A stretch of 64,000 nucleotides of DNA from Candidatus Omnitrophota bacterium (GCA_016935525.1 JAFGQU010000017.1:9559-73558), one strand, 5' to 3'; counted from the first letter of the stretch, positions 2,943 to 60,708 are shown. Notes: generated by a model from the letters alone, not told the origin. Numbers and translations: made by a program.

Positions 2943-2950
2943 TTTTTATA

Positions 2951-2983
2951 GGCCACAAGGTCACATAGTCACACGTCACATGT
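2951..2983. repeat. family A (GTCACAnn octamer array) half-element
   Basis: gccacaaggtcacatagtcacacgtcacatgtc. Confidence 0.7.
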
Positions 2984-2992
2984 CTAATACAA

Positions 2993-3100
2993 ATGTTCAA
3001 TGCAAATTTAGCATTTAGCAATTATCAATTTAAATCCTGTATTCCCGTTCCTATTTTTCCATTGTTAACTGCTAATTGTTAATTGAACATTGCTAATTTC
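2993..3100. repeat. family F (TTAGCAAT-type) inverted-array hairpin
   Basis: Arms 2993-3037 and 3059-3100 are mutually inverted. Arm 2996-3029 is the reverse complement of 45006-45039 with 1 mismatch. Confidence 0.65.
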
Positions 3101-3107
3101 TTATCTC

Positions 3108-3141
3108 TCTCTAACCGCTAGCCGCTGAACGCTATCCGCTA
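3108..3141. repeat. family E (TAGCGGnTAGCG-type) half-element overlapping the last codons of the response-regulator gene
   Basis: ctctaaccgctagccgctgaacgctatccgctattc. Confidence 0.6.
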
Positions 3142-4512
3142 TTCGGCCACTTCTATTCCGTACTTTTTCATCAGATCATAAAAGGTCGGGCGGGTAATAC
3201 CCAGCATTTTTGCGGCAAGGGTCATGTTATTTCCGCTGTCGGATAACGCTTTCTTGATCAGATTGATCTCTAACTCCTGCCGGGCATCTTTTAAGTTAAG
3301 TTTCTCTTTCGCGTCATCGAGTTCATTTTCTTTCCCGAACCCCAGCTCCTGCGGGGTAATCAGGGAGTTTTCCGCCAAGATCACCGCGCGCCTGACTCTA
3401 TTTTCCATCTCACGGATGTTTCCCGGCCAGACGTAACTTTTGATAAAATCTTTCGCTTCTTTAGAAAACCCTTTTATGTCTTTATTGACCGCTTCCTGAC
3501 GGTAATGCTGGAGGAAATGTTTTGCCAGGAGATAGGCATCATCACCTCGTTCCCGCAGGGGCGGCAGTTCGATATTGATCACGCTTAACCGGTAATACAG
3601 GTCTTCCCGAAAACTGCCGTCTTTGATCTTTTTCTTCAGATCGCAATTAGTCGCGACGATCACCCGCACGTCAAGTTCAAGCGGAATATTTCCGCCGACC
3701 CGTTCGATCGTCCGCTCCTGCAGGAACCTTAATATCTTTACCTGCAGGTTAAGGCTCATCTCGCCTATTTCATCCAGAAATACCGTACCGCCGTGGGCGG
3801 CTTCCAATTTTCCGATACGTTTTACGTGCGCGTCGGTAAAAGAACCTTTCTCATGGCCGAACAATTCGCTTTCCAACAGGTTCTCCGGTATCGCGCCGCA
3901 ATTGATGACCATAAACGGGTTCTCGTTACGCGGACTCAATTGATGAAGCGCCTGAGCTACCAATTCTTTACCGGTCCCGCTTTCCCCGGTGATCAATACC
4001 GTCGCGTCGGAAGGCGCGACCCGGCGGATAAGTTTAAAGATATCCTGCATTTTGGGCGAATCACCGATCATACTCTCGAACCCGCCGGCAGTATGGATCT
4101 CTTCATTCAGCCGTTTATTTTCTATTTCGAGTTCCTGCATATGCAGGGCCCGGCGAAAAATGATCTTCAGTTCGTCGATATTTACCGGTTTCAAATAATA
4201 ATCGTCCGCGCCCCTGGTGATTGCCTCCAGAGCCAGTTCTTTTGAATCGTTACCGGTGATCATGACCACTTTCAGAAAAGGGTTGTCGGTTTTAAGCGCT
4301 TCCAGGATATCCATCCCTTCTTTGTTACGGAAATTAGCGCCGTCAAGGTTGATATCTAACGCGAGCAGGTTCGGACGGATCTCTCGCGCGATCGCGAGCG
4401 CTTGCTCTTTGGACGTCGCGGTTTCTACTTCATACTCATCTTGAAGCGCCCATTTAAGCTGTTTCAGTATTCCCTCGTCGTCGTCTACGATCAGGATCTT
4501 CGCTCTTTCCAT
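3139..4512 (-). CDS. sigma-54-dependent response regulator (NtrC family; candidate PEP-CTERM-box regulator PrsR)
   Basis: N-terminal REC domain (ILIVDDDEG...D). AAA+ sigma-54 activator motifs GESGTGKEL and ESELFGHEKGSFTDA. C-terminal Fis-type HTH. Confidence 0.9.
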   Translation of the reverse strand: MERAKILIVDDDEGILKQLKWALQDEYEVETATSKEQALAIAREIRPNLLALDINLDGANFRNKEGMDILEALKTDNPFLKVVMITGNDSKELALEAITRGADDYYLKPVNIDELKIIFRRALHMQELEIENKRLNEEIHTAGGFESMIGDSPKMQDIFKLIRRVAPSDATVLITGESGTGKELVAQALHQLSPRNENPFMVINCGAIPENLLESELFGHEKGSFTDAHVKRIGKLEAAHGGTVFLDEIGEMSLNLQVKILRFLQERTIERVGGNIPLELDVRVIVATNCDLKKKIKDGSFREDLYYRLSVINIELPPLRERGDDAYLLAKHFLQHYRQEAVNKDIKGFSKEAKDFIKSYVWPGNIREMENRVRRAVILAENSLITPQELGFGKENELDDAKEKLNLKDARQELEINLIKKALSDSGNNMTLAAKMLGITRPTFYDLMKKYGIEVAE

Positions 4513-4522
4513 TGTTACACTC

Positions 4523-4559
4523 CTTTAAGTCACATAGACACAAGGTCACAAGTCACACG
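4523..4559. repeat. family A arm (left arm of cassette 1)
   Basis: aagtcacatagacacaaggtcacaagtcacacgtcat. Confidence 0.75.
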
Positions 4560-4910
4560 TCATAAAACATGATAGAACTTCCACAGTAAAGACCCAACTT
4601 GTTTCCTTGCTTTTTCTATATTAGTATATTCTTCATCTCTTAAATAATTCATTTCTTTAGAAAATTCCAGCAGATATTCTGTTTCGAATAAGGATCCTAA
4701 GGCAACATTGGCAAATTGGTTCAGTTCCCTTTTACCCTGTCTACCTGTCCCTTCGACAATATTTGTCGGGATAGACAAAGCCGCTCGGCGCAACTGAGAC
4801 GTAATACCGTATATTTCTTCTTTAGGAAACTGTTTAGTAATCATATAAACTTGTTTTGCCAATTCATTTGCCTTTTGCCAAACTAATAATTTCTTATATC
4901 CTTTCTCCAT
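4560..4910 (-). CDS. four-helix-bundle protein (23S rRNA intervening-sequence protein family, PF05635/TIGR02436; Avd-like), copy 1
   Basis: 116 aa and basic. Family hallmarks W-x-KA...FPK-EE-Y-L-SQLRRAA-SI--NI-EG. About 78% identical to copy 6. Confidence 0.85.
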   Translation of the reverse strand: MEKGYKKLLVWQKANELAKQVYMITKQFPKEEIYGITSQLRRAALSIPTNIVEGTGRQGKRELNQFANVALGSLFETEYLLEFSKEMNYLRDEEYTNIEKARKQVGSLLWKFYHVL

Positions 4911-4963
4911 CGCCCTCTCCTTTCTTTTTCCTGGGCGACATTCGGTTAAAACCTTCCCATCTC

Positions 4964-5013
4964 TGCGTGTGACTAGCCTGCCATAAGGCAGGCGTGTGTC
5001 ATGTGTCGTGTGA
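4964..5013. repeat. family A arm (right arm of cassette 1) with internal GC hairpin
   Basis: gcgtgtgactagCCTGCCataaGGCAGGcgtgtgtcatgtgtcgtgtgac. Confidence 0.75.
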
Positions 5014-6990
5014 CTTTGATGCGGGCATTTCTATCGTAAACGCAGTCCCTTCTCCGGGAACACTTTCTGCCCGCATCGTACCCCCGTGAGCTTCAATGAT
5101 CGTTTTACACTGATAAAGGCCGACGCCTAATCCTTTCTCTTTGGTCGATTGAAACGGCCGGAATAAATGGTTATCGATAAATTCTTTGCTCATACCGCAT
5201 CCGGTATCCTGTATCTTCAGCGATACGGTATTATCGCCGGTTTCGGCCTTTATAGTAAGCGTACCTTTAGTATCCATCGCTTCTATCGCGTTGAGGATCA
5301 GATTGGCTAATACCTTATTGATATAATGGGGATCGGCATCGATAATACCGCCGGGCGCGCATTCTTTGACGACTTCGATGCTCTTAAACCGGTTTTGCCC
5401 GAGCTCCGCGAGCGCCTCATCCACCAGACCGGATACAGCGCAGGGCCGCTTCTGGAGCTGCAGGTCGCCCCGTAAGGCGCGGAACTCTTCGATCAGTCTT
5501 TTCATCTTTTCGATAGTATGTTCAAGCGTGAATAACGCGTCTTTCTGGAATTCGGGATTATCGAATTTATCTTTATTCGCCGATAACATCGAGAGGTTGT
5601 TCACGTAATTTTTCACGTCATGGATGATGAATGAAGAAAGCTTATACAGCGATTCCTTTTTTTCCGCTTCCCGGATCTTCTGATAGGCGAGACAGTTCAC
5701 GATCACACTGGACGCCTGTAACGATAACAATTTAAGAAGTTCCGAATCAAAAAACACTTTCTTTTCAAAATCCAATCCGATGATCCCGATGACTTTTTTA
5801 TCTCCGTATAACGGGGAAACTATCTCCATGTGTTGCGCGTGAAAAAAAGCCGCCGCGCGGGGATATTTATCGCCTAACCCGTTATATAACGTATCGGACA
5901 GGTTAAACGGCGCGGCTTTACGGAGCATCCAATCATAAAATTCCGCTTCAAACGGTATCTGCGCGCCGAAGATGATCACTTTGACCAGACGGGCGTCCAT
6001 TATGTTTTTTACCGCGCGCTCCAGCTTCTCTTCGATCTGGGGCAGTTCGGTGACCAGCGATATCTGGTAGGTGAAATCTTCCCACAATTTCTGCCAATCA
6101 TAGGTCTGCCGGGTAACACTGCGTAAAAAGAAATATTTTATCCGGTCTTTTACGGCCGAAGAGAACACCAGCACGAAAAACACGATGACCAGGAATAATC
6201 CGGTGAGGACCGAGAACAGCACGTTCAGGTTCCAGCCGAACACCTGGAATATCTTGATAAACGCGCCGATAAAAAACAGGTACCCGCCGATCATCGATAA
6301 TGTCAACGAAGTATTCACGGCGGTGTCTTCTTTGACCATCTCGGCCGCGATCCCTCTCCGCGAAAGCGCCAGATAACATGCCGCGCCGATAAAGATACTT
6401 ACCGAAGAATAGAAAAAAATGTCCGCGTTTATGGTTTTAAACAAAAACGCGTAGGTCGCTAAAAACAGGTACGGTACCAATATGAACAACGTCCCCAGGA
6501 ACAATACGCGCACGTATTTTCTACGGCTAAGGGTCATGCTTCGTTCAAGATTGGAAAGGGTAAACGCGAGATTGATGATGAACAGAATAGAAAAATACTG
6601 GGCAAGATGAGAAAGAATAACCACAGAATCATGTTTCTCAAAATAAACGGCAGGATGGATCCATAAAATAAGGAAAAAGATAAGCCCGGCAACACCCAGT
6701 ATCGGCGCAAGGATCATACGGTACATAAATTTCTTTTTCACCGGCAATATCCCTATACTGAAAATAAACCATACAATCGGGAGAATAAACAAGCCGATAC
6801 CGAACAATACGCTCTGGTGAGCCCCTTCCAGGAAAGAAAGCTTGGAACACTCGATGACGGCTACGCTCAAAAGAGCAAACCCCGCAAGGAGATTCGCGAT
6901 ATGCCGACGACGCAGAAAATTATACGCCGCGACGATCAACAATACGACATTGATCCCGGGTACATAGGTAAAAATAAGATTATTGATCAT
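4999..6990 (-). CDS. sensor histidine kinase with large multi-TM N-terminal domain (candidate PrsK-type)
   Basis: At least 8 predicted TM helices in the first 280 aa. HisKA H-box HDVKNYVNN. HATPase_c G-boxes DTGCGM and GLGVGL. Confidence 0.85.
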   Translation of the reverse strand: MINNLIFTYVPGINVVLLIVAAYNFLRRRHIANLLAGFALLSVAVIECSKLSFLEGAHQSVLFGIGLFILPIVWFIFSIGILPVKKKFMYRMILAPILGVAGLIFFLILWIHPAVYFEKHDSVVILSHLAQYFSILFIINLAFTLSNLERSMTLSRRKYVRVLFLGTLFILVPYLFLATYAFLFKTINADIFFYSSVSIFIGAACYLALSRRGIAAEMVKEDTAVNTSLTLSMIGGYLFFIGAFIKIFQVFGWNLNVLFSVLTGLFLVIVFFVLVFSSAVKDRIKYFFLRSVTRQTYDWQKLWEDFTYQISLVTELPQIEEKLERAVKNIMDARLVKVIIFGAQIPFEAEFYDWMLRKAAPFNLSDTLYNGLGDKYPRAAAFFHAQHMEIVSPLYGDKKVIGIIGLDFEKKVFFDSELLKLLSLQASSVIVNCLAYQKIREAEKKESLYKLSSFIIHDVKNYVNNLSMLSANKDKFDNPEFQKDALFTLEHTIEKMKRLIEEFRALRGDLQLQKRPCAVSGLVDEALAELGQNRFKSIEVVKECAPGGIIDADPHYINKVLANLILNAIEAMDTKGTLTIKAETGDNTVSLKIQDTGCGMSKEFIDNHLFRPFQSTKEKGLGVGLYQCKTIIEAHGGTMRAESVPGEGTAFTIEMPASKSHDT

Positions 6991-19190: not shown

Positions 19191-19207
19191 AAAATTAAGG
19201 TCACAAG

Positions 19208-19468
19208 GTCACATAGACACATAGTCACAAGTTGAAGGTCACACGTTGCACGACACATAGTCACACGACTCCTCTCAGGATTTCTACAATACGAGATGCT
19301 GCTTTGCCATCCCACACACAAGTCACAACGTCACATAGACACATAGTCACAAGTTGAAGGTCACACGTTGCACGACACATAGTCACACGACTCCTCTCAG
19401 GATTTCTACAATACGGGACGCGGCTTTGCCGTCCCACACACAAGTCACAACGTCACATAGACACATAG
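19208..19468. repeat. tandem 122-bp direct repeat (2.1 units), each unit a family-A arm plus a degenerate copy of the last ~17 codons of wecB
   Basis: Unit starts at 19208, 19330 and 19452. ORF 19261..19443 encodes ...WDGKAASRIVEILRGVV, which mimics the wecB C-terminus WDGKAAQRIVEILKGDM. Confidence 0.8.
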
Positions 19469-20674
19469 TCACATGTCTCCTTTTAAAATCTCCACAATGC
19501 GCTGGGCCGCTTTCCCGTCCCATAAAGAAAGAGAAGGTAGCATTGCCGGGGGATTGTCAAGAATACGCATAGCATCGGTAATTATTTTCTCTTTATCACA
19601 ACCGACGATGATATTAGTGCCGGCATCGACCGTGATCGGCCGTTCGGTGTTCTCGCGTAACGTAAGACAGGGCACGCCTAAAACCGTGGTCTCCTCCTGC
19701 ATCCCGCCGGAATCGGTGAGAACCAGACGCGCTTCACTCATGAGTTTCAAGAAATCCAAATAGCCCAGAGGGTCTATTTGGATTAATCCATAGTCCATAG
19801 TCCGTAGTCCGTGGTTTATTTCTCCTTCTTTTCTCCATTCACGTGTGACTATGTGACTTCCCCGTTCCATAATATTTTTATACAGCGGGGTCCCGCTTAG
19901 ATATGTACATATCGGTGCGGGATGTGACTTTGTGACCTTTGCCAGAGCTTTGCGGGTACGGGGGTGGACGGGAAAGATCACCTTAATATGCCGGGATATC
20001 TCCTCTATTGCCTCCATTATTCCCTCTAAAACTTCGGGGTCGTCGACGTTTGAGGGACGATGCAGGGTCAATACCGCGTATTCTTTGGGTTTTATCCTAA
20101 GATCCTCTACTATTTTGGAATTTGCAGCTTGCTGCTTGTGCCTTAACAAAGTATCAATCATGACATTCCCCACAAAATAGATCTTATCTTCATTTACTCC
20201 TTCCCGAAGCAGATTTTCTTTGGCATCGGGTTCGGTCGTAAAAAGGTAATCCGAAATTGCGTCGGTCAATACCCGGTTGATCTCCTCCGGCATCGTCCGG
20301 TCGAAACTGCGCAGGCCCGCCTCGACATGAGCCACTTTTACGCCTAATTTAGAGGCGACCAGGGCGCAGGCAATAGTGGAATTCACATCACCAACGACTA
20401 CTACCAGGTCCGGTTTTTCTTTTATCAATACCGGTTCAAACCGTTTCATGATTTCGGCGGTCTGGGCCGCGTGAGATAAAGAACCGACCTCTAAATTGAT
20501 ATCCGGTTTAGGTATCCCTAATTCATCAAAAAACAGTTTTGACATCTTCTCGTCATAATGCTGGCCGGTATGGACAAGTACCGCTTCTATCTCGGGATGT
20601 TTTTTGTATTCATCCATGAGCGGCGCTATTTTCATGAAATTTGGTCTTGCCCCCGCCACATTAATAATCCTCAT
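19469..20674 (-). CDS. wecB: UDP-N-acetylglucosamine 2-epimerase (non-hydrolysing) carrying a ~43-aa in-frame insertion derived from a repeat element
   Basis: HTGQHYD ... LVVVGDVNST ... TDSGGMQEE epimerase_2 motifs. The insertion is encoded by 19790-19935. Confidence 0.9.
   Translation of the reverse strand: MRIINVAGARPNFMKIAPLMDEYKKHPEIEAVLVHTGQHYDEKMSKLFFDELGIPKPDINLEVGSLSHAAQTAEIMKRFEPVLIKEKPDLVVVVGDVNSTIACALVASKLGVKVAHVEAGLRSFDRTMPEEINRVLTDAISDYLFTTEPDAKENLLREGVNEDKIYFVGNVMIDTLLRHKQQAANSKIVEDLRIKPKEYAVLTLHRPSNVDDPEVLEGIMEAIEEISRHIKVIFPVHPRTRKALAKVTKSHPAPICTYLSGTPLYKNIMERGSHIVTREWRKEGEINHGLRTMDYGLIQIDPLGYLDFLKLMSEARLVLTDSGGMQEETTVLGVPCLTLRENTERPITVDAGTNIIVGCDKEKIITDAMRILDNPPAMLPSLSLWDGKAAQRIVEILKGDM
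19790..19935. repeat. composite family C + family A + AGCGGGACCCCGCT/TATAAAAAT sub-element inserted in-frame in wecB
   Basis: Reverse complement of 19830-19935 aligns at about 85% to 57555-57660. ccatagtccatagtccgtagtccgtgg at 19793-19820 is family C. Confidence 0.75.
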
Positions 20675-20689
20675 TATGTCCTCCTCAGT

Positions 20690-20765: not shown

Positions 20766-20767
20766 TA

Positions 20768-43903: not shown

Positions 43904-43910
43904 ATATCCT

Positions 43911-43950
43911 CCTAGTTACGTAACGAGTAACGCGACACGCGTAACGCGTC
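43911..43950. repeat. family H (GTAACGnn units) short array at the 5' end of the locus
   Basis: agttacgtaacgagtaacgcgacacgcgtaacgcgtcc. Confidence 0.4.
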
Positions 43951-44054
43951 CAAGAAAACCAGGAAATACTACGCATTCCGGATTCCGCGTTTCGCATTAC
44001 GATATTTGATTATGAATGAACCTTTGTCCTGGTATGTCACGGACTTTCATAGTA

Positions 44055-44071: not shown

Positions 44072-44347
44072 TTTAAGAAAAACGCAAACAATAGCTAATA
44101 AGTCATTGCGAACGAATGAGTTATAAAAAATATATTTTGTAAGCGCTTTCAGAGGTATTTTGAGGGGCCTTTAGAGAAGCTGTTTTTGTTTAAAAAAATG
44201 GATATATTCACCATATATCAAGCCGAAATCCATGGCTATATCTACAAGCATTTGCACATCAATAGGTTATAAACGTCGCTTTTCAAGGACACACTGTCTA
44301 AAAAGATGGACACATTTCCCCGCCGAAAAGATTGATTCCGGCGGGGA

Positions 44348-44477
44348 GTCACAAAGTCACATAGACACATAGTCACACGTACGCCTTTTCGGCAAGTCAC
44401 AAGGACACAAAGTCATACATATTCGGTTTCACGTGTGACGTGTGTCGTGTGACTAGCCTGTCAACAGACAGGCGTGT
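44348..44477. repeat. family A solo hairpin (long loop) followed by GC hairpin GCCTGTCaacaGACAGGC
   Basis: Left arm 44348-44380, right arm 44431-44453. The loop shares attcggtttc with the 57640 copy and cggcaagtcacaa with 57530. Confidence 0.8.
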
Positions 44478-44487
44478 GGCTTATACT

Positions 44488-44862
44488 TTAGAGGGAAGGT
44501 ATTTCGGAGGGGATTTTAGAGCGGATAAGCAATAAAATAGCGGAATGAGGTATTACATAGTACTTCTTTTTCTCAAATTCCACTTCAACTCCCGAATCAC
44601 GTAAAAACAAGCAGAAATCTCCGGTTTTCACCTGAAGCGGGAAATATTTAGTACGCTGGCGGGATACCGCCCAGGGTTCATCTTCGAACGAAGACGGATC
44701 GAAAATAGGGTAACCGGGGCCGCTGCGGACGATCTTACCGCTTTGGACTTTCTCTTTATCTTTTACGGTCTGAGGAAGATAAAGCCCATAATCGGTCACC
44801 GAATCCCCCTGGCCGGGTTCGATGAGCACCTTGTCCCCTACTAATATGATCTCTTTTTCCAT
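44488..44862 (-). CDS. GroES/Cpn10-fold-like protein
   Basis: KVLIEPGQGDS ... GKIVRSGPG pattern resembles co-chaperonin-like beta-barrels, but 124 aa is longer than GroES. Confidence 0.4.
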   Translation of the reverse strand: MEKEIILVGDKVLIEPGQGDSVTDYGLYLPQTVKDKEKVQSGKIVRSGPGYPIFDPSSFEDEPWAVSRQRTKYFPLQVKTGDFCLFLRDSGVEVEFEKKKYYVIPHSAILLLIRSKIPSEIPSL

Positions 44863-44911
44863 AACGCCTTAATTGTACCTTTTGATAGTGGTTTGTCAAC
44901 CCGGACAAAAT

Positions 44912-45036
44912 GATCAATAATCAATTAGCAATTATCATTTAGCAATGATGGAAAAAATAAAATACTGTCCGTGAGTGCCCCTCATTTAAATTTTTCATTG
45001 ATAATTGCTAAATGCTAAATTTGCATTGAGCATTTA
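44912..45036. repeat. family F solo inverted-array hairpin
   Basis: Left arm gatcaataatcaattagcaattatcatttagcaatgatgg. Right arm cattgataattgctaaatgctaaatttgcattgagcat. Confidence 0.7.
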
Positions 45037-46794
45037 TTAGAAGTAGTATTGGGCTCCCGCCTGCCACCATCGCCCTTGAGCTTTCACATCGGTAAGCTCA
45101 TGATAACCCCGGTTAAAGATGTTCGTACCCTCTAAAAACAGGCTGAAGCCTTCTTTTATCTCTTTGGCAATCCTTACGTCGGTGGTCACATAATTATTTC
45201 GTTGCCGGGGACGGACCAGATGATTGAAGATGTGAATATCGGCAGAAAAAAGAGAAAGGTTCACGCCCGTAGTCAATCTATGTTTGTCATAATCGAAAAG
45301 GTATTTAGAGAAATGGTATTCTTTATCCGCCGAATGCAGATACGTATAGTTGGTGGAAATATTTCTCATAACGGGATTATCGATTTTCCAGATAAAACCG
45401 CACTCGATGCCTTTTGCGGTATTATCCCCGATGTTTCGCGCGCGCCAGGGAGCACCGGCCGCGTTTTTGACCCAATCGATAGTGTCAAAATAGTCTTTTA
45501 AAAATATTCCGGCATGGAACTTCATCTGTCCGGCCGAAACACTTGCCATGATCTCAAAATTATTTATTTTCTCAGGATCTAACGAAGAATCACCGATATT
45601 TGCCGGAGAATTGTAGTAAAGTTCGGTAAAAGAAGGGGTCCGGATGAGCCGGTTATAGATAAAGTCTATCTCGAAGCCTTTTTGCGGTAAGAACCCCAGT
45701 TTAGCGTTCCATTCCATATCTCCCCCGGTCCCTTGAGAATGAATAAACCGGTTACCCGCTTCTATAAAGAAAAAGTCGGAAAAAGCCGGATGTACCCGTA
45801 TCCCGGCAGTTTTACGTATCCGGGAATGGTTGCCGAGTGAAGTGCTGGTAAGTTTTTCTTTGGCGATATCGGTATGGATATCGATAGCGTCGTATAGCGT
45901 AAGGAGCGATTGGCCGCCATACACATAGGTAGTATGCTGGTTTTCGAAAAATGAGGGGTTATGACGGTCAAGTAAAAACCGGTCGTAATGACGGCGGAAA
46001 TAAAGGGCATTATGTAATGTGAACTTTTTTTTCTTTAGTTGATGAGCGAGTTTAAAAAAACGTTGGCCGGTGGTTTCGGCCTGATGCGGAAAACCGGCCG
46101 AATAGAACGTGCTTGCGCCGAAATCTTTTTCCTGATCGGCATAAAGAAAAGATAACTCGTTGTCTTTTTCGCCCAATACGGAATAAAAAGTAAAATTGTA
46201 ATGATCGAAATCGGTATCCTGACGCCCCCCCGATGAAGCTTTATGGTCAACGGAAAGGCGGTTTTTTATTGCATCGTTTCCGAAATTGAACGAAAAGGTC
46301 TGGGTGCCGAGCGCGTGCTGACCGAACGAAGCGCGGAACGCTCCCCCATTCTTATCCGGCCTTTTTATACGGTAATCGACGGTATGAGTTCCTTTATTTA
46401 CTTCTATTTTCTCAATATCATATATCGTAAACGGTATTTCCATACTGAAATGGCCGGTCTGCGGGTCATTGACTCTTATCCCGTCAAGACGGATATCGAC
46501 GTCTTCAAAACTGGAACCACGGATAGAAAGATCCTGTTGCGTTCCGAAAGAGTTTCGGCGTTTTAATTCGATACCGGGCAGGAACCGGACGGCTTCATCG
46601 ACGGAATGTACCGGTAACGATTCGATATACCGTCCGGTAAGCGTGTTTATCGAACGGGATGAAAACTCTTTATAGGTCACCGTGATCGGTTCAAGATCGA
46701 TAGTCTGAGAGAACACGCGTTGAGAAAAAATAAAAATAAATAAACATGTTAAATAAATTTTTCTCATAATCTTCTTTAAGTTTAGAGAAATCAT
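45037..46794 (-). CDS. TonB-dependent outer-membrane receptor (short form)
   Basis: Signal peptide, plug domain (RYIESLPVHSVDEAVRFLPGIEL), beta-barrel and C-terminal aromatic residue (QYYF). Confidence 0.75.
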   Translation of the reverse strand: MISLNLKKIMRKIYLTCLFIFIFSQRVFSQTIDLEPITVTYKEFSSRSINTLTGRYIESLPVHSVDEAVRFLPGIELKRRNSFGTQQDLSIRGSSFEDVDIRLDGIRVNDPQTGHFSMEIPFTIYDIEKIEVNKGTHTVDYRIKRPDKNGGAFRASFGQHALGTQTFSFNFGNDAIKNRLSVDHKASSGGRQDTDFDHYNFTFYSVLGEKDNELSFLYADQEKDFGASTFYSAGFPHQAETTGQRFFKLAHQLKKKKFTLHNALYFRRHYDRFLLDRHNPSFFENQHTTYVYGGQSLLTLYDAIDIHTDIAKEKLTSTSLGNHSRIRKTAGIRVHPAFSDFFFIEAGNRFIHSQGTGGDMEWNAKLGFLPQKGFEIDFIYNRLIRTPSFTELYYNSPANIGDSSLDPEKINNFEIMASVSAGQMKFHAGIFLKDYFDTIDWVKNAAGAPWRARNIGDNTAKGIECGFIWKIDNPVMRNISTNYTYLHSADKEYHFSKYLFDYDKHRLTTGVNLSLFSADIHIFNHLVRPRQRNNYVTTDVRIAKEIKEGFSLFLEGTNIFNRGYHELTDVKAQGRWWQAGAQYYF

Positions 46795-46810
46795 CTACAA
46801 AGATATATTC

Positions 46811-47045
46811 ACCACAGAGATCACGGAGTCCACAGAGAAGATACAGAGGATATTTGGTTTCCTTCATCGTTTCTCGATGGAGCATCTTCGCGAAAACAGC
46901 CGAGACGGAAAATATAATTTTCCGGTTCGATCTGATATTCGCGAAAGACGGCGCTTGCATATTTGAAAGCGCGAAACCAAATATCATGGATCTCGTCGGA
47001 TCTAAAACTCTCATTCTCACTCCGTGCCCTCTGTGTCCTCAGTGG
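46811..47045. repeat. family G (CACAGAG-type units) inverted arms enclosing a ~160-bp core
   Basis: Left accacagagatcacggagtccacagagaagatacagagg. Right ctcactccgtgccctctgtgtcctcagtgg. Confidence 0.65.
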
Positions 47046-47115
47046 TTAAAAATCCTTCTGTTAATATCTTCTTAGAATAATACATATTCGGGAAGTAGAA
47101 ATGTTTTATTTAGAA

Positions 47116-47832
47116 TTATGGATTCTGGTAGGTGAACAATGCTTTCTTAATATTTATTTTACCTTCATAAAACGCTTTTCCGATGATCACTCCGTATACA
47201 AACGGCGCTTCTTTCCGGACCAGCGCGAGGTCTTCCATGCTTCCGATCCCGCCGGAAAGGATATATTCCGGACCGGTAATAGTTTTAAGTTTTTTTACTT
47301 CCTCGATACTGGGGCCGGCCAGTGTCCCGTCTTTGGCAATATCGGTATAGATCACCGTGTTCACTCCTTTTCCGGCAAGGTAGCGGACAAATTCCAGAAA
47401 CGAAACCGTTGAGGCCTCCTGCCATCCTTTGGTGCGGAATATCCCGTCAAGCACATCGACACTGACGGCGACTTTTTCTTTGAATCCGGCTAACAGAGAG
47501 TCCAGGAACGCTTCATCGGTCGCTTGAGTGCCAATAATGACCCGTTTGACTCCCAGATCGATAAGCCGTTCGGCTTTTTCAAACGTACGGATCCCTCCTC
47601 CGGTCTCAAGAGGAATACCGGCGTTGGCAATCGTATGGATTACTTTTTCGTTCTCACCGTCACCGAAAGAAGCGTTGAGATCAACGATATGGATGAGGGA
47701 GGCTCCTTCGTCACGCAATTTCTCGGCCATTCCCAGAGGATCGTCACTGTAGACGATGCATGATTCCTTTTTGCCCTGGTAGAGACGGACGACTTTACCG
47801 TTATAGAGATCTATTGCGGGTATGATCAGCAT
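47116..47832 (-). CDS. hisA: ProFAR isomerase
   Basis: MLIIPAIDLYNGKVVRL ... VDLNASFG ... GGIGSMEDL. 238 aa. Confidence 0.85.
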   Translation of the reverse strand: MLIIPAIDLYNGKVVRLYQGKKESCIVYSDDPLGMAEKLRDEGASLIHIVDLNASFGDGENEKVIHTIANAGIPLETGGGIRTFEKAERLIDLGVKRVIIGTQATDEAFLDSLLAGFKEKVAVSVDVLDGIFRTKGWQEASTVSFLEFVRYLAGKGVNTVIYTDIAKDGTLAGPSIEEVKKLKTITGPEYILSGGIGSMEDLALVRKEAPFVYGVIIGKAFYEGKINIKKALFTYQNP

Positions 47833-47844
47833 ACCGATTGAAAG

Positions 47845-47940
47845 TCACATAGACACATAGTCACATGGTCACACGTTAAAACCCAGAAAACATTATTTCT
47901 TTCCCCCGCGTGTGACGTGTGTCGTGTGACGTGTGACATG
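47845..47940. repeat. family A solo hairpin between hisB and hisA
   Basis: agtcacatagacacatagtcacatggtcacacgt, loop 33 nt, gtgtgacgtgtgtcgtgtgacgtgtgacatgt. Confidence 0.8.
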
Positions 47941-47943
47941 TAA

Positions 47944-48594
47944 TTAGTCTATTATTCCCTTTGTGGACGGAATCCCCTGCCGGCGCGGGTCGATCTGAGT
48001 AGCTTGATCTAAGGCTTTCCCCATCGCTTTAAATAAAGCTTCAAGAAGATGATGGAGATCTCCTTGAATGGATTTTATGATGTACACCAGGCTTATTCCC
48101 GCGTGGTTTACAAATCCTTCCAGAAATTCTTCGGTATCTCTAAACGTGAAGTTTGTATTATCAAATTTACCTTCAAGTATATCAGGCCCAACTTTAATGT
48201 AAGACCCTTCCGTTGCATCATAGGACTGAGGTCCTGTCGGAACATATGTTTCTCTATGCAACGAAGGCCGGCCGCTGATATCAACGTTGGCCTCGACAAC
48301 TACCTTATCCATAGTCGCCGAAAACGAACCGTACCGGTTGATACCGGATTTATCGCCCAAGGCTTCTTTAAAGGCTTTACCTAACGCGATACCGATATCT
48401 TCGATAATATGATGAGGAAGATCTCCCGCTGCTTCCAACTTTAAATCAAAAAGGCCGTGAAAGGCAAAAAGAGTGAGCAGATGGTCCAGAGGATCAAATC
48501 CGGTTTTTATATCGGTCTTACCCTGGCCGTCAATAATCAATTCGCCTTTAATGTCAACTTCATTCGTTTTACGCATAATATGAGCTTTTCTCAT
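47944..48594 (-). CDS. hisB: imidazoleglycerol-phosphate dehydratase
   Basis: RKTNEVDIK ... DPLDHLL ... HHIIEDIGIALG IGPD motifs. Confidence 0.85.
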   Translation of the reverse strand: MRKAHIMRKTNEVDIKGELIIDGQGKTDIKTGFDPLDHLLTLFAFHGLFDLKLEAAGDLPHHIIEDIGIALGKAFKEALGDKSGINRYGSFSATMDKVVVEANVDISGRPSLHRETYVPTGPQSYDATEGSYIKVGPDILEGKFDNTNFTFRDTEEFLEGFVNHAGISLVYIIKSIQGDLHHLLEALFKAMGKALDQATQIDPRRQGIPSTKGIID

Positions 48595-48602
48595 TTCTCT
48601 CC

Positions 48603-48688
48603 TCGCAAGTCACATAGTCACAAGGTCACATAGTCACACGTAGGAAAGGGAATCTTACGTGTGTCGTGTGACGTGTGTCGTGTGACTC
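48603..48688. repeat. family A solo hairpin between hisD and hisB
   Basis: agtcacatagtcacaaggtcacatagtcacacgt, loop 15 nt, acgtgtgtcgtgtgacgtgtgtcgtgtgactc. Confidence 0.8.
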
Positions 48689-48689
48689 A

Positions 48690-49907
48690 TTACTTTATTC
48701 TCTTCTTTACACTTTCTAAATGTTTAACCATTCCCTCAAGTGTCACGATCTTTTCCAACGCGTCATATTCTTCGATCAACGCCTTCTTGGTATAAGAGAT
48801 CACGTGGATCTCTTTTAAGAATTCACGGACCGAAAGGCCCGAGAAAAAACGCGCGGTACTTTGAGTAGGGAGCACGTGGCTTGGCCCGGCGACATAATCT
48901 CCCAGGCAGACCGGTGAATTTTCTCCTAAAAATATCGCGCCGGCGTTCTTTATTTTCTTTAAAAGTTCCGCGGGTTTCCGGGTAAGTATCTCTACATGTT
49001 CGGGGGCGATACGGTTTACCACCTCACAGGCGTCGTCAAGGTTTCTTACCCTGATCACGAACCCGTTAAGGCGTTTTTTACGTAATTCGTTAGCTATCTT
49101 TTTGGAATTAGTCACGACAATGCCTAATCCGCCCCGGTGTTCGGTCTGGGCTTCAAGGTCCGCGTTGATATATTCAAGGTTCGCTCCTTTTGAAGCAATG
49201 ATCACGATTTCCGAAGGGCCGGCAAGCAGGTCGATCGCGGCCTTACCGAATACCTGGCGTTTAGCTTCGGTGACGAATTCATTGCCCGGGCCGATGATCT
49301 TATCGACTTTTTTTATCGTTTTAGTGCCGTAGGCAAGCGCGGCGATAGCCTGGGCTCCGCCGATCTTATATATCTCTTTTATTTTTAACATCGAGGCGAC
49401 CGCGAGAATAAACGGATTAATAGTCTTATGCTGGTTAGGCGGAGAGACCAGAACGATCTCTTTCACTCCGGCGACGATCGCCGGTATTGCCGACATATAT
49501 ACACTGGATACCAGCGGGAATTCTCCCGCCGGAACGTATATACCGATACGTTCTATCGGAGTATATATCGAGGAAAGCATTTTCCCGTTTTCTTCTTTTA
49601 ATTTGACCGGCCGCGGCAGATGAGCTTTATAGAATTTGGTCACGTTGTCAATCGCGACTTTGATACTTGAGATGATCGCCGAATTCAGGTCGTTGAAGGA
49701 CGCGCTGATCTCCGATTCGGTCACGGTAAGTTCTTTTATTTTTAATCTCACCTTATCGAAACGCCGAGTATACTCGATAAGGGCATCGTCCTGGCGTTCT
49801 TTTACGTTACGCAGGATCTTCGTCACTTTATCCTCGACCGTGCGGCGGCGGTTACGTTTGTTGTAAAGCAATTTTTCCAGATTATTGAGGTTTCTCAGTA
49901 CCCGCAT
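48690..49907 (-). CDS. hisD: histidinol dehydrogenase
   Basis: GGAQAIAALAYGT ... IDLLAGPSEIVIIA ... EAQTEH motifs. Confidence 0.85.
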   Translation of the reverse strand: MRVLRNLNNLEKLLYNKRNRRRTVEDKVTKILRNVKERQDDALIEYTRRFDKVRLKIKELTVTESEISASFNDLNSAIISSIKVAIDNVTKFYKAHLPRPVKLKEENGKMLSSIYTPIERIGIYVPAGEFPLVSSVYMSAIPAIVAGVKEIVLVSPPNQHKTINPFILAVASMLKIKEIYKIGGAQAIAALAYGTKTIKKVDKIIGPGNEFVTEAKRQVFGKAAIDLLAGPSEIVIIASKGANLEYINADLEAQTEHRGGLGIVVTNSKKIANELRKKRLNGFVIRVRNLDDACEVVNRIAPEHVEILTRKPAELLKKIKNAGAIFLGENSPVCLGDYVAGPSHVLPTQSTARFFSGLSVREFLKEIHVISYTKKALIEEYDALEKIVTLEGMVKHLESVKKRIK

Positions 49908-55409: not shown

Positions 55410-55445
55410 ATATGACCTCCTATTTTTTTAAGTGTTCAGTCTTTA

Positions 55446-55520
55446 GTCCAGAGTCCGTGGACCGTGGTCCATAGACCGCAGTCTATTCTCTATTGTCTAC
55501 TGACTATCGACTATCCGCTG
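55446..55520. repeat. family C solo element upstream of recA
   Basis: agtccagagtccgtggaccgtggtccatagaccgcagtc ... ctactgactatcgactatccgc. Confidence 0.65.
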
Positions 55521-55630
55521 TTCCAAGGGAACCTTATTATACCGTGCAAAAAATACAATGTCAAAAATCCAAAATAATGTTTATTTACAGTATTCAGGAG
55601 ATGGATTTTCACAGAACGAATACGTTTTAA

Positions 55631-55885
55631 ACCACGGAGGGCACTGAGACCACAGAGAGTATTCGAGGTTATTTCTCGTTATTTGAAAAAATCTGTAATG
55701 CTCAAATCGCTCATAGAGCGTTTTGATTCAAGGCACACAGGGCGTGGGAATAAAAAGATTATTTTATTTCTCCGCCCTGCGCGCCCTGAATTTCTCTGCG
55801 AGATATTTATCGCAGGGAAATTACAGATTTTCTCCTCTGTGTACTCTGCGCGCTCTGTGGTTGAATCTCTTTGGTACACACAGAT
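55631..55885. repeat. family G inverted arms enclosing a ~170-bp core
   Basis: Left accacggagggcactgagaccacagagagtat. Right ctcctctgtgtactctgcgcgctctgtggttgaatctctttggtacacacagatatc. Confidence 0.65.
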
Positions 55886-55911
55886 ATCTTAGATCCTCTA
55901 GTTTATAAGTT

Positions 55912-57068: not shown

Positions 57069-57076
57069 ATACTATA

Positions 57077-57130
57077 GGTCACACGCTTGTCTATCGACAA
57101 GCAAGTCACAAGGTCACATAGTCACACGGC
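57077..57130. repeat. family A half-element with a perfect internal hairpin GCTTGTCtatcGACAAGC
   Basis: ggtcacacgcttgtctatcgacaagcaagtcacaaggtcacatagtcacacgg. Confidence 0.75.
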
Positions 57131-57491: not shown

Positions 57492-57554
57492 TGTCTCCTC
57501 CTCTTCTTGCCTGCTTCGCAGGCAGTCAGGCATCTGCCTTCGGCAAGTCACAAT

Positions 57555-57700
57555 GACACATCCCGCACCGAGATTTTTCTTATCCAGCGGGACCCCGCTG
57601 TATAAAAATATTATGGAACGGGGAGGTCACATAGGCACACGTATTCGGTTTCACGTGTGACGTGTGACGTGTGTCGTGTGACATGTGACGTGTTTTACTC
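57555..57700. repeat. composite family A element containing the AGCGGGACCCCGCT palindrome + TATAAAAATATTATGG sub-element
   Basis: 57560-57660 is about 85% identical to the reverse complement of the wecB insert. Right arm acgtgtgacgtgtgacgtgtgtcgtgtgacatgtgacgtgt. Confidence 0.8.
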
Positions 57701-58270: not shown

Positions 58271-58324
58271 AATATAATAAGATTAACAAATAACTTCTAA
58301 AGGAGCAAGCAAATAATTCCTTAT

Positions 58325-58362
58325 TATAAGTCACAAGGTCACAAAGACACAAGGTCACATGT
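58325..58362. repeat. family A arm (left arm of cassette 6)
   Basis: aagtcacaaggtcacaaagacacaaggtcacatgtc. Confidence 0.75.
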
Positions 58363-58712
58363 CAAAGAGAATGATAAAATTTCCACAATAAAGCCCCGAC
58401 ATGTCTACGTAACATCTCTATTTCACTATATTTATCAGCATTCAAATATCCCATTTCACGGCAAAAATCCAATAGATATTCAGTCTCAAACAATGAGCCT
58501 AAAGCAATATTAACAAATTGCTTCAATTCTCTTTTACCCTGCCGGCCCGTCCCCTCGACAATATTTGTCGGAATAGATAAAACCGCTCGGCGCAATTGAG
58601 AAGTGATTGCATAAATTTCTTCTTTGGGAAATTGTCTAGTAAGAGCATACACCGTCTTAGCCAGTTCATTAGCTTTCTGCCAGGCTAATAATTTTTTATA
58701 CCCTTTCTCCAT
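58362..58712 (-). CDS. four-helix-bundle protein (PF05635/TIGR02436), copy 6
   Basis: 116 aa. About 78% identical to copy 1. Confidence 0.85.
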   Translation of the reverse strand: MEKGYKKLLAWQKANELAKTVYALTRQFPKEEIYAITSQLRRAVLSIPTNIVEGTGRQGKRELKQFVNIALGSLFETEYLLDFCREMGYLNADKYSEIEMLRRHVGALLWKFYHSL

Positions 58713-58747
58713 CGCCCAACTCCTTTCTTCTCCTGGGCGATCTCTGT

Positions 58748-58792
58748 ATTTTTCACATGTGACTTTGTGACTATGTGACGTGTGACCTTGAT
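58748..58792. repeat. family A arm (right arm of cassette 6)
   Basis: cacatgtgactttgtgactatgtgacgtgtgacctt. The reverse complement ends ...gtcacatgtg, like the left arm. Confidence 0.75.
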
Positions 58793-60588
58793 TACATTTT
58801 CAATACTTCCCAGAACGCTTCCTGAGGCACCGTTACCATACCGATCTGTTTCATCCTCTTTTTCCCTTTTTTCTGTTTTTCCCACAGTTTGCGTTTTCGG
58901 CTGATATCTCCGCCGTAACATTTCGCGGTTACGTTTTTCTTTAAAGCCGATACTTTTTCGGCAGCGATGATCCTTGCGCCAATACCGGCCTGAATACTCA
59001 CCTCATACATCTGACGGGGAATAAGTTCTTTCAACTTTTCTACTACCCCCCTGGCTTTCGTATACGCTTTCTCTTTATGGACTATCAGCGAGAACGCCTC
59101 AACCGGCTTCTTATTCAAAAATAAATCTATCTTCACGATTTCGGTTTTACGGTATCCGATAAATTCATACTCAAAGGAAGCATATCCTTTACTGGCCGAT
59201 TTAATCTTATCGTAAAAATCTACTATAATCTCAGCCAGGGGGAGTTCAAACACAAGGTTAATCCGGTCTTTCCCCAGATAATCGCTTTTAATAAATTCGC
59301 CGCGACGGGATTTTGCCAATTCACAAATAGCATCCATCGCGTCGATCGGAGTAAGTACCGTCGCCTGGATGTAGGGTTCAAACACTTCCGCGATCTCGGT
59401 CTCTCCCGGTAAATGATGCGGGCTGTCGACGTTGACAGTTTCTCCGTCGGTTTTTTTCACCTGGTACATTACGCTGGGAGAAGTAACGATCAAATCCAAA
59501 GAGAATTCCCGTTCCAACCGCTCCTGGACGATCTCCATATGTAAAAGGCCCAGAAATCCACAACGGAACCCATAGCCTAAAGCCCCGAGGCTATCCGGTT
59601 CAAAGACGAACGAAGAATCTGAAAGATGCAGTTTCTCAATCGCTTCCCGTAATTGCGGATAATCTTTAGGCGCCGTCGGGAAAATACCGCTGAATACCAT
59701 CGGCGACATCTTTTTATACCCTTCAAACGGTTTTTCGGTAGGGTTATCTTTTAACGTAATAGTATCGCCGACATCCACTTCCTGAGGATTTTTGATGTTA
59801 CAGCAAATATAGCCGACATCTCCGGCGCGTAATTCATTCTGTTTAAGCTGTTCGGGGACAAAAAAACCTACTTCTTCTACCCGATAGGTCGCGTTTTTAT
59901 GCATCATCAGAATAGTGTCGCCTACCGCGAGTTTACCGTCAAATACCCTGACAAACACTATCGCGCCTTTATACAGATCAAATACCGAATCAAAAAGGAT
60001 CGCTTTTAACGGTTTGGTTTCATCAGCCGCCGGTGGCGAGATCTCCTTGATGATCCGTTCCATCACCGCTCTTACTCCGGTGCCTTCTTTTGCCGAAACA
60101 TAGGTGACCTCTTCTTCTTTAAATCCGAAGATATCATGCAGTTCCTCAGCGGTCCGTTTACGGTTCGCACTGGGGAGATCGATCTTGTTCCCTACCGGGA
60201 TGATACGCAAATCGTTTTCCAGAGCAAGATAAAAGTTACCCATAGTCTGAGCTTCAATCCCCTGTGACACATCGACCAGCAATAGCGCTCCTTCACAGGC
60301 TTTCAATGATTTTGCTACCTCATAGGTAAAATCGACATGTCCCGGAGTATCGATAAGGTTGAGGATATATTCGTTCCCGTCATCGGCTTTGTAGGTAAAC
60401 CTTACGGCTTTAGCTTTGATAGTGATGCCCCGCTCTTTCTCCAATTCCATGCTATCAAGCATCTGATCGGTAAATTTACGCTTATCGATCGCTCCCACAA
60501 GCTCTAACATCCGGTCGGCAAGCGTAGACTTCCCATGATCAATATGGGCGATTATACAGAAGTTTCTTATGTCCGGACGATTACTCAT
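58792..60588 (-). CDS. lepA: elongation factor 4
   Basis: NFCIIAHIDHGKSTLADR G-domain. 598 aa. Confidence 0.95.
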   Translation of the reverse strand: MSNRPDIRNFCIIAHIDHGKSTLADRMLELVGAIDKRKFTDQMLDSMELEKERGITIKAKAVRFTYKADDGNEYILNLIDTPGHVDFTYEVAKSLKACEGALLLVDVSQGIEAQTMGNFYLALENDLRIIPVGNKIDLPSANRKRTAEELHDIFGFKEEEVTYVSAKEGTGVRAVMERIIKEISPPAADETKPLKAILFDSVFDLYKGAIVFVRVFDGKLAVGDTILMMHKNATYRVEEVGFFVPEQLKQNELRAGDVGYICCNIKNPQEVDVGDTITLKDNPTEKPFEGYKKMSPMVFSGIFPTAPKDYPQLREAIEKLHLSDSSFVFEPDSLGALGYGFRCGFLGLLHMEIVQERLEREFSLDLIVTSPSVMYQVKKTDGETVNVDSPHHLPGETEIAEVFEPYIQATVLTPIDAMDAICELAKSRRGEFIKSDYLGKDRINLVFELPLAEIIVDFYDKIKSASKGYASFEYEFIGYRKTEIVKIDLFLNKKPVEAFSLIVHKEKAYTKARGVVEKLKELIPRQMYEVSIQAGIGARIIAAEKVSALKKNVTAKCYGGDISRKRKLWEKQKKGKKRMKQIGMVTVPQEAFWEVLKM

Positions 60589-60611
60589 AACGCATTATAG
60601 TTGAAATAAAT

Positions 60612-60708
60612 AAGTCACAAAGTCACATAGACACATAGTCACACGTGAAAAAATATTAAATCTTAATACGTGTGTCGTGTGACATGTGACGTGTGACCTC
60701 CCTTTTAT
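60612..60708. repeat. family A solo hairpin between lepA and cmk
   Basis: agtcacaaagtcacatagacacatagtcacacgtg, loop 20 nt, acgtgtgtcgtgtgacatgtgacgtgtgacct. Confidence 0.8.

Follow-up and report, generated by a model that had tools for sequence, protein, structure and literature searches.

Inverted tandem heptamer arrays enclose PF05635 genes in operon gaps of a Candidatus Omnitrophota bacterium: candidate intervening-sequence-type elements and their gene-less derivatives

Coxiella burnetii's 23S rRNA intervening sequence (IVS) carries an open reading frame (ORF) for S23p within a stem-loop, whose 28-bp stem is formed by terminal inverted repeats and is cut by RNase III, and its 5' end bears three tandem GACAGAT heptamers, variable in number between strains (PMC4990558). 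The protein family concerned, PF05635, goes under the names 23S rRNA intervening-sequence protein, IVP, S23p and, in TIGR02436, 'four helix bundle protein'; we refer to its members as IVPs. Here we report that IVP genes enclosed by inverted arrays of short tandem units, along with gene-less hairpins of similar design, lie between the protein-coding genes of a 64,000-nucleotide stretch from a Candidatus Omnitrophota bacterium (GCA_016935525.1, JAFGQU010000017.1:9559-73558), the whole of which we call the window and within which all positions are counted from its first letter. We interpret them, with a probability of roughly 0.6, as IVS-type insertion elements of operon gaps, the autonomous form being a PF05635 gene within inverted arrays and the remainder gene-less derivatives. 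With rRNA IVSs of the Coxiella, Leptospira and Xanthomonas type (PMC4990558) they have in common the protein family encoded in the loop, the closing stem, the heptamers in the arms and the occurrence of forms in which the ORF is absent or decaying. They differ from these in lying in gaps between protein genes, and once in a coding sequence, rather than in a 23S or 16S rRNA helix, and in comprising nine or more unit families; furthermore, RNase III excision is known for the rRNA cases only.

The other closely related systems are families of simple sequence repeats (SSRs), namely the GGGAATC repeats of Xanthomonas (PMC4692102), the STRR/GGGGAYT repeats of cyanobacteria, the TAACTGA repeats of Beggiatoaceae (PMC4679880) and the paired arrays of Geobacter metallireducens (PMC2700814). 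Their units of 7-9 nt stand in tandem, typically in 2-6 copies, mostly in intergenic DNA, often as convergent pairs, and they occupy gaps within operons, proB|proA among them. The window likewise has tandem units of 7-9 nt, an intergenic concentration of arrays and frequent inverted pairs. In contrast to the interpretation developed here, the described families were read as G-quadruplexes, as agents of post-transcriptional regulation or as IHF/HU sites, and the passages searched in those papers do not tie them to PF05635. Arrays of a single family have been described for Xanthomonas, for Nostoc and Calothrix (STRR) and for Beggiatoaceae (PMC4692102, PMC4679880). The GGGAATC repeats catalogued by Rehm et al. 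comprise 186 loci with 70 convergent pairs, and their role 'remains to be elucidated' (PMC4692102). In G. metallireducens, several classes of paired tandem arrays, with three to five units of 7-9 nt, were reported from operon gaps in 2009 and taken to be sites at which unknown global regulators bind (PMC2700814). The bare architecture of multiple classes of paired arrays, described in an earlier note on this DNA that was written from the sequence alone, is anticipated by that report. Both heptamer arrays and rRNA IVSs had been known separately, and what appears to be new is the link of the arrays to IVP genes: we found no paper connecting heptamer arrays with PF05635 genes, in a search that covered subscription journals only thinly, so that a prior description is possible.

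The window has a G+C content of 45% and contains about 58 genes, with all long ORFs on the minus strand, and the elements described below are given on that same strand. Non-coding DNA amounts to 4,337 bases (6.8%), and Tandem Repeats Finder (TRF) together with reading of the sequence indicated that nearly all of it is made up of 7-8 bp units in arrays. A strict scan for periods 7 and 8 recovered 26 arrays, or 4.1 per 10 kb, as against an expectation of 0.45 arrays in mononucleotide shuffles. Arrays are scarce in the coding sequence of the window, with 23 of the 26 falling mostly in the 6.8% that is non-coding. Among the three 'coding' arrays, that at 40163 is an element's 3' arm, which enters the end of an ORF, and that at 19787 is a genuine insertion within a gene, wecB, where one element lies in frame (19780-19940); the view that the sites are strictly intergenic has to be given up accordingly. 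An array or a hairpin was recognized, on reading the gap sequences, in about 25 of the 28 intergenic gaps of at least 24 nt, and the TRF coordinates agree with the earlier placement of tandem-array hairpins in nearly every gap. Nine or more unit families coexist, and a gene-bearing form is present for five of them. The neighbouring genes that were scanned are protein-coding, and a search of the whole window with Rfam at gathering thresholds gave no match, to rRNA or otherwise. An assembly artefact was ruled out because the three intergenic gaps that were compared read identically in the window and in an independent Logan assembly (L081, SRR13394437).

The earlier note had counted six array pairs with a gene in the loop, and this count stands; what it overlooked is their common denominator, in that all six genes encode PF05635 proteins (Pfam e-values of 3.5e-20 to 2.7e-40). 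Among the approximately 58 genes of the window the correspondence between an array pair enclosing a gene and an IVP gene is thus six for six, and a tblastn search of the window for further IVP copies, including pseudogenes in the large gene-less elements and the long gaps, found none. Each IVP gene is bracketed by arrays of its own unit family: GTCACA for the genes at 4560-4910 and 58362-58712, ATTACAA for 20768-21121, GTCCATAGACC for 34251-34604, TAGTCTCTGG for 36519-36926 and TAGCGG for 40159-40572. The two proteins of family A (GTCACA) are 78% identical, and identities between families range from 24 to 41%. The presumed autonomous form is a PF05635 gene of about 115-135 codons within inverted arrays of roughly 3-5 tandem units of 7-8 nt. 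When the whole sense RNA of each full element (447-511 nt) was folded, the arms of all six paired over a long range in the minimum free energy (MFE) structure, forming a closing stem of 15-43 bp around the ORF.

The best delineated of these elements is A1 (4520-4998; PF05635 e-value 2e-36; 15 long-range bp), which consists of a 5' arm with a GC hairpin (4967-4998), a hairpin at the ribosome-binding site (RBS; 4911-4937), the IVP gene and a 3' arm built from GTCACAnn units (4527-4559). The element is flanked by the gene of a PEP-CTERM-box response regulator (3139-4512, NCBIfam) and, upstream of the regulator, by an ORF of 663 aa (4999-6990). The locus L001 carries a syntenic copy with an IVP 85% identical to that of A1. 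The A1 protein, the single IVP that was scanned against NCBIfam, matched TIGR02436. Element A2 lies between lepA and lepB (58325-58792; e-value 6e-35; 36 long-range bp), with GTCACA/TGTGAC arrays at 58330-58359 and 58758-58790. Element B (20685-21165; e-value 3.5e-20; 33 long-range bp) has ATTACAA/ACAAACA arrays, and element C (34190-34700; e-value 2.5e-36; 43 long-range bp) has arrays of the GTCCATAGACC type. In element D (36522-36968; e-value 2.7e-40; 24 long-range bp; inverted repeat I8) the 3' arm (36527-36557) lies within the C-terminal tail of the ORF and the 5' arm is at 36932-36966. The TAGCGG arrays of element E (40155-40625; e-value 4.7e-36; 31 long-range bp), at 40161-40194 and 40587-40620, form an inverted repeat (I1) that is 82% complementary, and its 5' arm is followed by a CCGCCACT hairpin (40585-40678; fold z-score -3.5 on the minus strand).

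Two small structures accompany the family A elements. Directly 5' of the start of A-type IVP genes there is a conserved hairpin, CGCCCAGGAnAAAGnAAGGAGnGGGCG in the sense orientation, with the RBS in its loop (4911-4937 and 58713-58739, and also in L001), which may control translation of the IVP. A GC-rich mini-hairpin of the type AGCCTGCC-loop-GGCAGGC occurs at 4967-4998, 44447-44478 and 57080-57110 and is kept in the upstream flank of L001; it had been placed just outside the arm, and is actually situated between the units, inside the arms of family A.

To assess how general the association is, we scanned one genome per species, obtaining 540 IVP relatives, and examined the best 80 of these; the 75 loci with at least 100 nt on both flanks were used for flank comparisons. 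The 80 span Bacteroidota, Acidobacteriota, Planctomycetota, Omnitrophota, Verrucomicrobiota, Firmicutes, Patescibacteria, Desulfobacterota and Chloroflexota, among other groups. Nearly all 75 have a tandem array upstream of the gene and its reverse complement downstream, with a unit that varies by lineage. Local alignment of each upstream flank with reverse-complemented downstream flanks gave a mean score of 30.8 for cognate pairs as against 17.3 for non-cognate ones; the cognate flank ranked first in 26 of the 75 loci and among the top four in 43, the high scores of some non-cognate flanks arising because certain loci have a unit in common. Of 125 flank arrays, 106 have a period of 7 and 14 a period of 8, and no period stands out in control segments taken from these loci; the 8-bp unit period proposed previously holds for one arm of family A and not generally. 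The median array has 3.6 copies, and numbers fall off steeply beyond five, with 35 arrays of 4-5 copies and four of 5-6. The IVP gene runs in the direction of both its neighbours in 58 of 62 loci, at median distances of 56 and 48 nt, and lies within operons. We hold with high confidence that the association of IVP genes with arrays is general across phyla.

Well-studied genomes offer further instances. The X. campestris orthologue of XCC0516 lies between accB and accC with CGGGAAT x4.4 upstream and CCCATTC x4.3 downstream, and hence falls within the GGGAATC repeat family of Xanthomonas; a search of the paper on that family (PMC4692102) turned up no mention of S23. Among cyanobacterial plasmids, inverted heptamers flank the IVP genes of Calothrix (GGGTGTA/TACACCC) and Nostoc punctiforme (AGGAGTC/GACTCCT), and Nostoc PCC 7120 has a downstream array only, adjoining an insertion sequence, so that the inverted rule holds in two of three such contexts. 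In Flavobacteriia an IVP element is found repeatedly upstream of a thiolase gene. The reservoir of such proteins is large: clustering of PF05635-type sequences at 50% identity gave 44,841 clusters at e-values up to 1e-3 and 19,780 at up to 1e-10.

These data bear on whether the arrays could be microsatellites generated by replication slippage without any machinery, their hairpins and the neighbouring IVP genes being coincidental. Bacterial SSRs are indeed known to include an excess of heptamers (cited in PMC4692102), and the copy number varies between Coxiella strains (PMC4990558). Slippage would, however, have to account for inverted partner arrays at a matched distance, for loop genes that all encode IVPs, for cognate complementarity across 75 loci and for the prevalence of period 7 beside IVP genes as opposed to controls; the loop-gene, flank and period data already contradict it, and we regard it as scarcely credible. 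The earlier argument that a common architecture over unrelated unit sequences points to a common mechanism is upheld. A folded single strand also fits better than phased duplex sites, the arms being always complementary although the units change freely between lineages.

An AlphaFold2 model of the IVP (pLDDT 92) superposes on XCC0516, the pentameric crystal structure of which (2gsc) defines the family (TM-score 0.96), and on BT_0352. The next structural matches recovered with Foldseek, at a TM-score of 0.78, are the bacteriophage Avd protein and the cryo-EM ribonucleoprotein of a diversity-generating retroelement (DGR). A HEPN-like RNase or nuclease fold was considered and rejected, given that Foldseek returned S23p and Avd structures only. 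The sequence relationship to Avd is weaker, with an e-value of 5.6e-9 that lies below the NCBIfam cutoff. Avd, described as 'similar to S23 ribosomal proteins', forms a pentameric barrel of positive charge and binds a dedicated RNA stem-loop encoded beside its own gene (bioRxiv 10.1101/2023.10.23.563531).

The homology with Avd (PDB 4dwl, 8ub7), in sequence and in the four-helix-bundle fold, raises the possibility that the elements are relics of DGRs or of other retroelements dependent on reverse transcriptase (RT), in which the IVP acts as Avd and the arrays were made or copied by reverse transcription. The tandem 7-8 nt units do resemble the product of templated repeat synthesis. In contrast to DGRs, however, IVP loci lack an RT and template/variable repeats, no RT being present among the roughly 30 window proteins scanned and no such repeat pair beside any IVP gene; the differences between arms are not specific to adenine, searches of phage records found no IVP homologues, and the putative RNA partner is a stem of tandem units. 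We consider this origin decidedly improbable and retain the view of the IVP as the protein of an IVS-type element.

IVPs have also been connected with CRISPR (short palindromic repeats that are clustered and regularly interspaced). Eighteen IVP genes were reported within cas loci, the gap from cmr3 to cmr2 being one example (PMC3936711), and the family was listed as associated with CRISPR arrays (PMC10910872). CRISPR repeats alternate with unique spacers, whereas the units in the window abut, as the earlier note had rightly stressed in setting CRISPR aside, and PADLOC, applied to three IVPs, gave no match to a defence system. The 'CRISPR-associated' listings plausibly stem from insertion into cas operons or from mis-called arrays.

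HisB homologues assign the window to Candidatus Omnitrophota; an exact look-up of its LepA gave no recorded protein, and the source genome is missing from the GTDB representatives. Evidence on how the elements arose comes from the same gaps in relatives. Between hisD and hisB the window has a gene-less A hairpin, where L093 has a full A-type element, with a GGTGAC arm and an IVP 70% identical to that of A1, and L082 has an IVP gene of 142 aa. The gap after hisB holds a gene-less A hairpin in the window, with hisA next, an E-type IVP with TAGCGG arms in L093, and in L082 an E-type IVP 62% identical to the window E protein. In L083 and L094 both gaps are empty, measuring 9-19 nt between hisD and hisB and 8-10 nt after hisB, where hisH is next. 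HisB of L093, L082 and the latter two is 79%, 77% and 74% identical to that of the window, respectively. The gaps of the his operon are thus seen in three states, empty (8-19 nt), with a full IVP element or with a gene-less hairpin, and one gap can hold full elements of different unit families in different genomes. Conversely, the E protein and its unit recur as a pair at unrelated loci, at 40155 in the window and in the his gap of L082 and L093. After the response-regulator gene, L001 has an IVP with the unit CCCGTTW, as against a composite in the window (2943-3141) made up of an isolated A arm (2952-2983), a hairpin of family F (2985-3105; z-score -4.9 on the plus strand) and an isolated E arm (3111-3141). 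Gene order in L083, lepA ... recA ... alaS-hisD-hisB, matches the window, and L083 and L084 have no array in 32 kb, as opposed to 2.4-7.7 per 10 kb in L001-L004 and L082. In L004 four IVP genes lie within 7.7 kb, each beside arrays of a different unit, and in L003 the A-type IVP is interrupted by a stop and retains the 5' arm only.

Two observations on gene neighbourhoods may be added. In L083, L094 and L096, which are free of elements, hisH separates hisB from hisA; it is absent from that position in the window (47116-48594) and in L082, both rich in elements, where hisA follows directly; the contig of L093 stops before the hisA position and lies outside this comparison. An IVP element immediately upstream of a response-regulator gene was seen in the window (4560-4910), L001 and L003, and in similar form in L011 and L012; the regulator is of the PEP-CTERM-box type in the window (NCBIfam) and, judging from flank translations, in the relatives. 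This placement recurs in metagenome-assembled genomes (MAGs) of Omnitrophota and Planctomycetia and in an acidobacterial MAG, and the upstream neighbour in L003 reads as the C-terminus of a histidine kinase.

Taken together, the three gap states, the conserved non-array cores and the ATTCGGTT motif that copies share (see below), and the L003 pseudogene point to a life cycle of insertion and decay, and these sequence comparisons support a course in which an element is gained by insertion, its gene decays and the hairpin persists. The full A element of L093 and the window hairpin in one and the same gap conform to a derivation like that of MITEs (miniature transposable elements with inverted repeats), by internal deletion with retention of the same ends. 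No target-site duplication is visible, though the relatives with empty sites have diverged to 74% HisB identity, and the IVP has no transposase domain. We have high confidence in an insertion history as the explanation suggested by these sequences.

As to how such insertions would be tolerated, we envisage the following. Since the elements are co-oriented in gaps between co-transcribed genes, they would be transcribed by read-through. The two arrays would pair in the RNA to give one long imperfect stem closing off the insert, and RNase III would cut this stem in the mRNA as it does in rRNA IVSs, thereby removing the insert from the operon RNA without religation and leaving the operon unharmed. 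Excision of this kind would explain tolerance in operon gaps, at the tips of rRNA helices and in cas operons. In TRAP-type ring proteins each subunit binds one short RNA repeat, and the spacers that separate the conserved cores vary. By analogy with their binding mode, with no homology implied, the IVP pentamer could bind its own arrays with roughly one unit per subunit, which would account for a 7-nt period out of step with the helix, the conserved 6-nt core followed by a variable spacer of 1-2 nt, the ceiling of five units and the lineage-specific units. Spread would take place at the DNA level, and loss of the gene would leave hairpins. We infer both the RNase III processing of mRNA stems and the binding of arrays by IVPs with moderate confidence, by analogy with the described systems.

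Several observations weigh against this scheme. A strand test based on G-U pairs in 83 elements revealed no sense/antisense bias in arm pairing (43 vs 40 loci), and because the test is neutral, a role at the RNA level is not favoured over one at the DNA level; the gene-less A hairpins of the window even have a slight folding advantage on the antisense strand. The proposed cutting of mRNA-borne elements by RNase III would be an extrapolation from rRNA. No transposase, recombinase or RT was found beside any IVP gene, nor a target-site duplication, and families F, G, H and I lack an IVP in the window. The S23p ORF of Coxiella is apparently decaying and untranslated (PMC4990558). In the loci L005, L021 and L023 the arrays on the two sides are direct and not inverted, L005 having about 15 copies of GCGTAAGW beside a protein 64% identical to the A type of the window. 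Protein and unit match only above about 60% identity, with L005, at 64%, having a different unit, and such matching as there is may be explained by co-inheritance equally well as by specific recognition. Finally, arrays well over five units exist, with 13.7 units in our set and 14 in Xanthomonas (PMC4692102).

A competing explanation is a purely selfish element acting at the DNA level, in which the arrays are MITE-like terminal repeats forming single-stranded DNA hairpins or cruciforms, a host enzyme or one acting in trans moves them, the IVP is cargo or an accessory, and the RNA structure is a by-product. Such an element would fit the empty and filled sites in relatives, the occupation of one gap by different families, the near-identical dispersed copies in both orientations, the copy inside the coding sequence of wecB and the pairing of arms irrespective of the sense strand. 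It fits less well with the shared orientation of the IVP gene and both its neighbours, seen in 58 of 62 loci, and with the neat placement of elements between a stop codon and the next RBS, which together imply that transcription context matters, with the absence of a nearby transposase and of a target duplication, and with the retention of one operon site across genera, as upstream of the thiolase gene. We deem it unlikely, although it is the most serious of the competing explanations, and continue to favour IVS-type elements that are tolerated in transcribed gaps.

The closest functional analogy is with repetitive extragenic palindromic (REP) sequences, their bacterial interspersed mosaic elements (BIMEs) and the REP-associated tyrosine transposases (RAYTs). 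In the resulting REPtron, as in the window, a small gene lies between inverted copies of its own repeat, many gene-less copies are intergenic and several families are possible. The analogy fails on the type of repeat and on the protein: REPs are single palindromes of 20-40 nt with a GTAG/CGTC head, whereas the window has arrays of tandem units and no such head in its sequences, and the REPtron gene encodes an HUH tyrosine transposase (IS200/IS605-like), whereas that of the window encodes a PF05635 four-helix bundle with no known catalytic activity. The earlier statement that the elements are not REP/BIME-like therefore holds for protein and repeat, but needs to be qualified as regards the arrangement.

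The empty gaps also bear on an interpretation in terms of domesticated regulatory sites, whereby the arrays bind a global regulator or nucleoid protein of the IHF/HU type, or act as stabilizers or attenuators of mRNA, and IVP genes merely accumulate beside them. The paired arrays of G. metallireducens were so read (PMC2700814), and some elements lie in 5' leaders by promoters, such as that upstream of recA. Nine or more different regulators would nevertheless be needed in one genome, the units change freely between relatives while the arms stay complementary, a relative with the same operons has gaps of 8-19 nt without arrays, and no terminator-like site on the sense strand falls on a hairpin. 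On balance this seems improbable to us beside an origin by insertion.

On our reading, what the window contains is a set of IVS-type elements outside rRNA, plus their gene-less progeny. Together with the 75 loci, Xanthomonas and the cyanobacterial plasmids, it indicates that three separate puzzles, the function of S23p/IVP, the excess of intergenic heptamers in bacteria and the nature of rRNA IVSs, are one phenomenon. More tentatively, and with the odds in our estimate somewhat against the proposal in its full extent, PF05635 genes with inverted heptamer arrays could form a single widespread class that colonizes operon gaps, rRNA helices and cas operons, is tolerated by virtue of RNase III stem excision, has a pentamer that reads its own array at about one unit per subunit, and is the source of the bacterial heptamer excess, including STRR, GGGAATC, the 'regulator sites' of Geobacter and TAACTGA of Beggiatoa. 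The main value of the finding is that it ties a very large uncharacterized protein family to unexplained bacterial heptamer repeats, and the design of IVP elements may be the reason why heptamers are common in bacteria. The XCC0516 structure and the mapped cognate GGGAATC arrays provide a directly approachable system. The link would also account for IVP genes reported as 'CRISPR-associated', and draws attention to an annotation hazard, in that arrays are open to being mis-called as CRISPRs or regulator sites. If binding proves specific, the families would constitute a natural set of orthogonal protein/repeat pairs.

The gene-less pairs of the window fold as long imperfect stems, with z-scores (given as pairs for the two strands where both are quoted) from about -1.3 to -6.9 in family A, about -3 to -5 for the better-folding strand of families F, C and I, and -8 to -11 in family G. 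The stable stems expected earlier are hence borne out for these families and for the six full elements, but family H (43910) and a site at 63200 fold no better than shuffles (z-scores of -0.8 and 0.1). Gene-less A hairpins are located at 35690-35790 (-3.2/-4.2), at 44340-44490 with an embedded GC hairpin (-6.9/-4.6), between hisB and hisA at 47838-47945 (-4.5/-2.3), between hisD and hisB at 48600-48692 (-6.5/-4.3) and between cmk and lepA at 60605-60705 (-6.2/-5.5), the last being 80% identical over 86 nt to the hairpin at 48595. The weakest copy (-1.3/-2.4) is at 57552-57697, where the hairpin (57625-57697) is joined to a conserved core of 87 nt. The copies at 44340 and 57552-57694 have in common a stretch of 50 nt with 88% identity that contains ATTCGGTT, a motif present within the full element A1 as well as in gene-less A copies.

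The 87-nt core of 57552-57694 recurs, inverted and with 90% identity, in the wecB insert (19770-19950). This insert comprises a C array, A units and the core, lying in frame at 19780-19945; wecB, which encodes UDP-GlcNAc 2-epimerase (ORF 19469-20674, minus strand), stays open across approximately 160 nt and gains about 38 residues, and its alignment to PDB 4neq breaks at residues 246-300. Close by, three family A arrays (19191-19477) belong to a 122-bp tandem duplication (19200-19473; 2.2 copies at 96% by TRF) that also contains a copy, about 70% identical, of the 3' end of wecB, which suggests that arrays promote local duplication.

Among the other families, a second F hairpin (44895-45040; -2.9 on the plus strand) has 39 nt at 97% identity with that in the composite gap (2943-3138). 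A family C hairpin (55425-55535; -3.4) would be in the leader of recA, since a perfect sigma-70 consensus (TTGACA-17-TATAAT; 55536-55564, minus strand) lies just upstream, between this hairpin and a G element, and a C-like hairpin is present at 37415-37500 (-2.1/-2.8). Family I is represented by a hairpin of GATTACnGTGAT units at 38925-39075 (-2.9 on the plus strand). The two G elements, each of about 310 nt with CACAGAG arms (46795-47115, -8.2/-7.9; 55600-55911, -9.9/-11.3), are alike in their arms only; their interiors, which in the first span 230 highly structured nt, are unrelated, lack an ORF, have no Rfam match and resemble nested palindromes. Family D has in addition a lone array of (GGTCTCT)x5.6 at 41502-41550, with 100% matches in TRF.

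A 22-residue insertion in HisB (47944-48594), HRETYVPTGPQSYDATEGSYIK, relative to a 194-aa homologue was considered as a product of an element and rejected, as it contains no arrays; it is probably ordinary loop variation. Directly downstream of the H arrays, which consist of GTAACGnn units and form a poor hairpin (43910-44005 by TRF; -0.8/-1.3), there is a small unlisted ORF (43738-43905, minus strand), the manual translation of which reads as a helix-turn-helix protein of the MerR/excisionase type.

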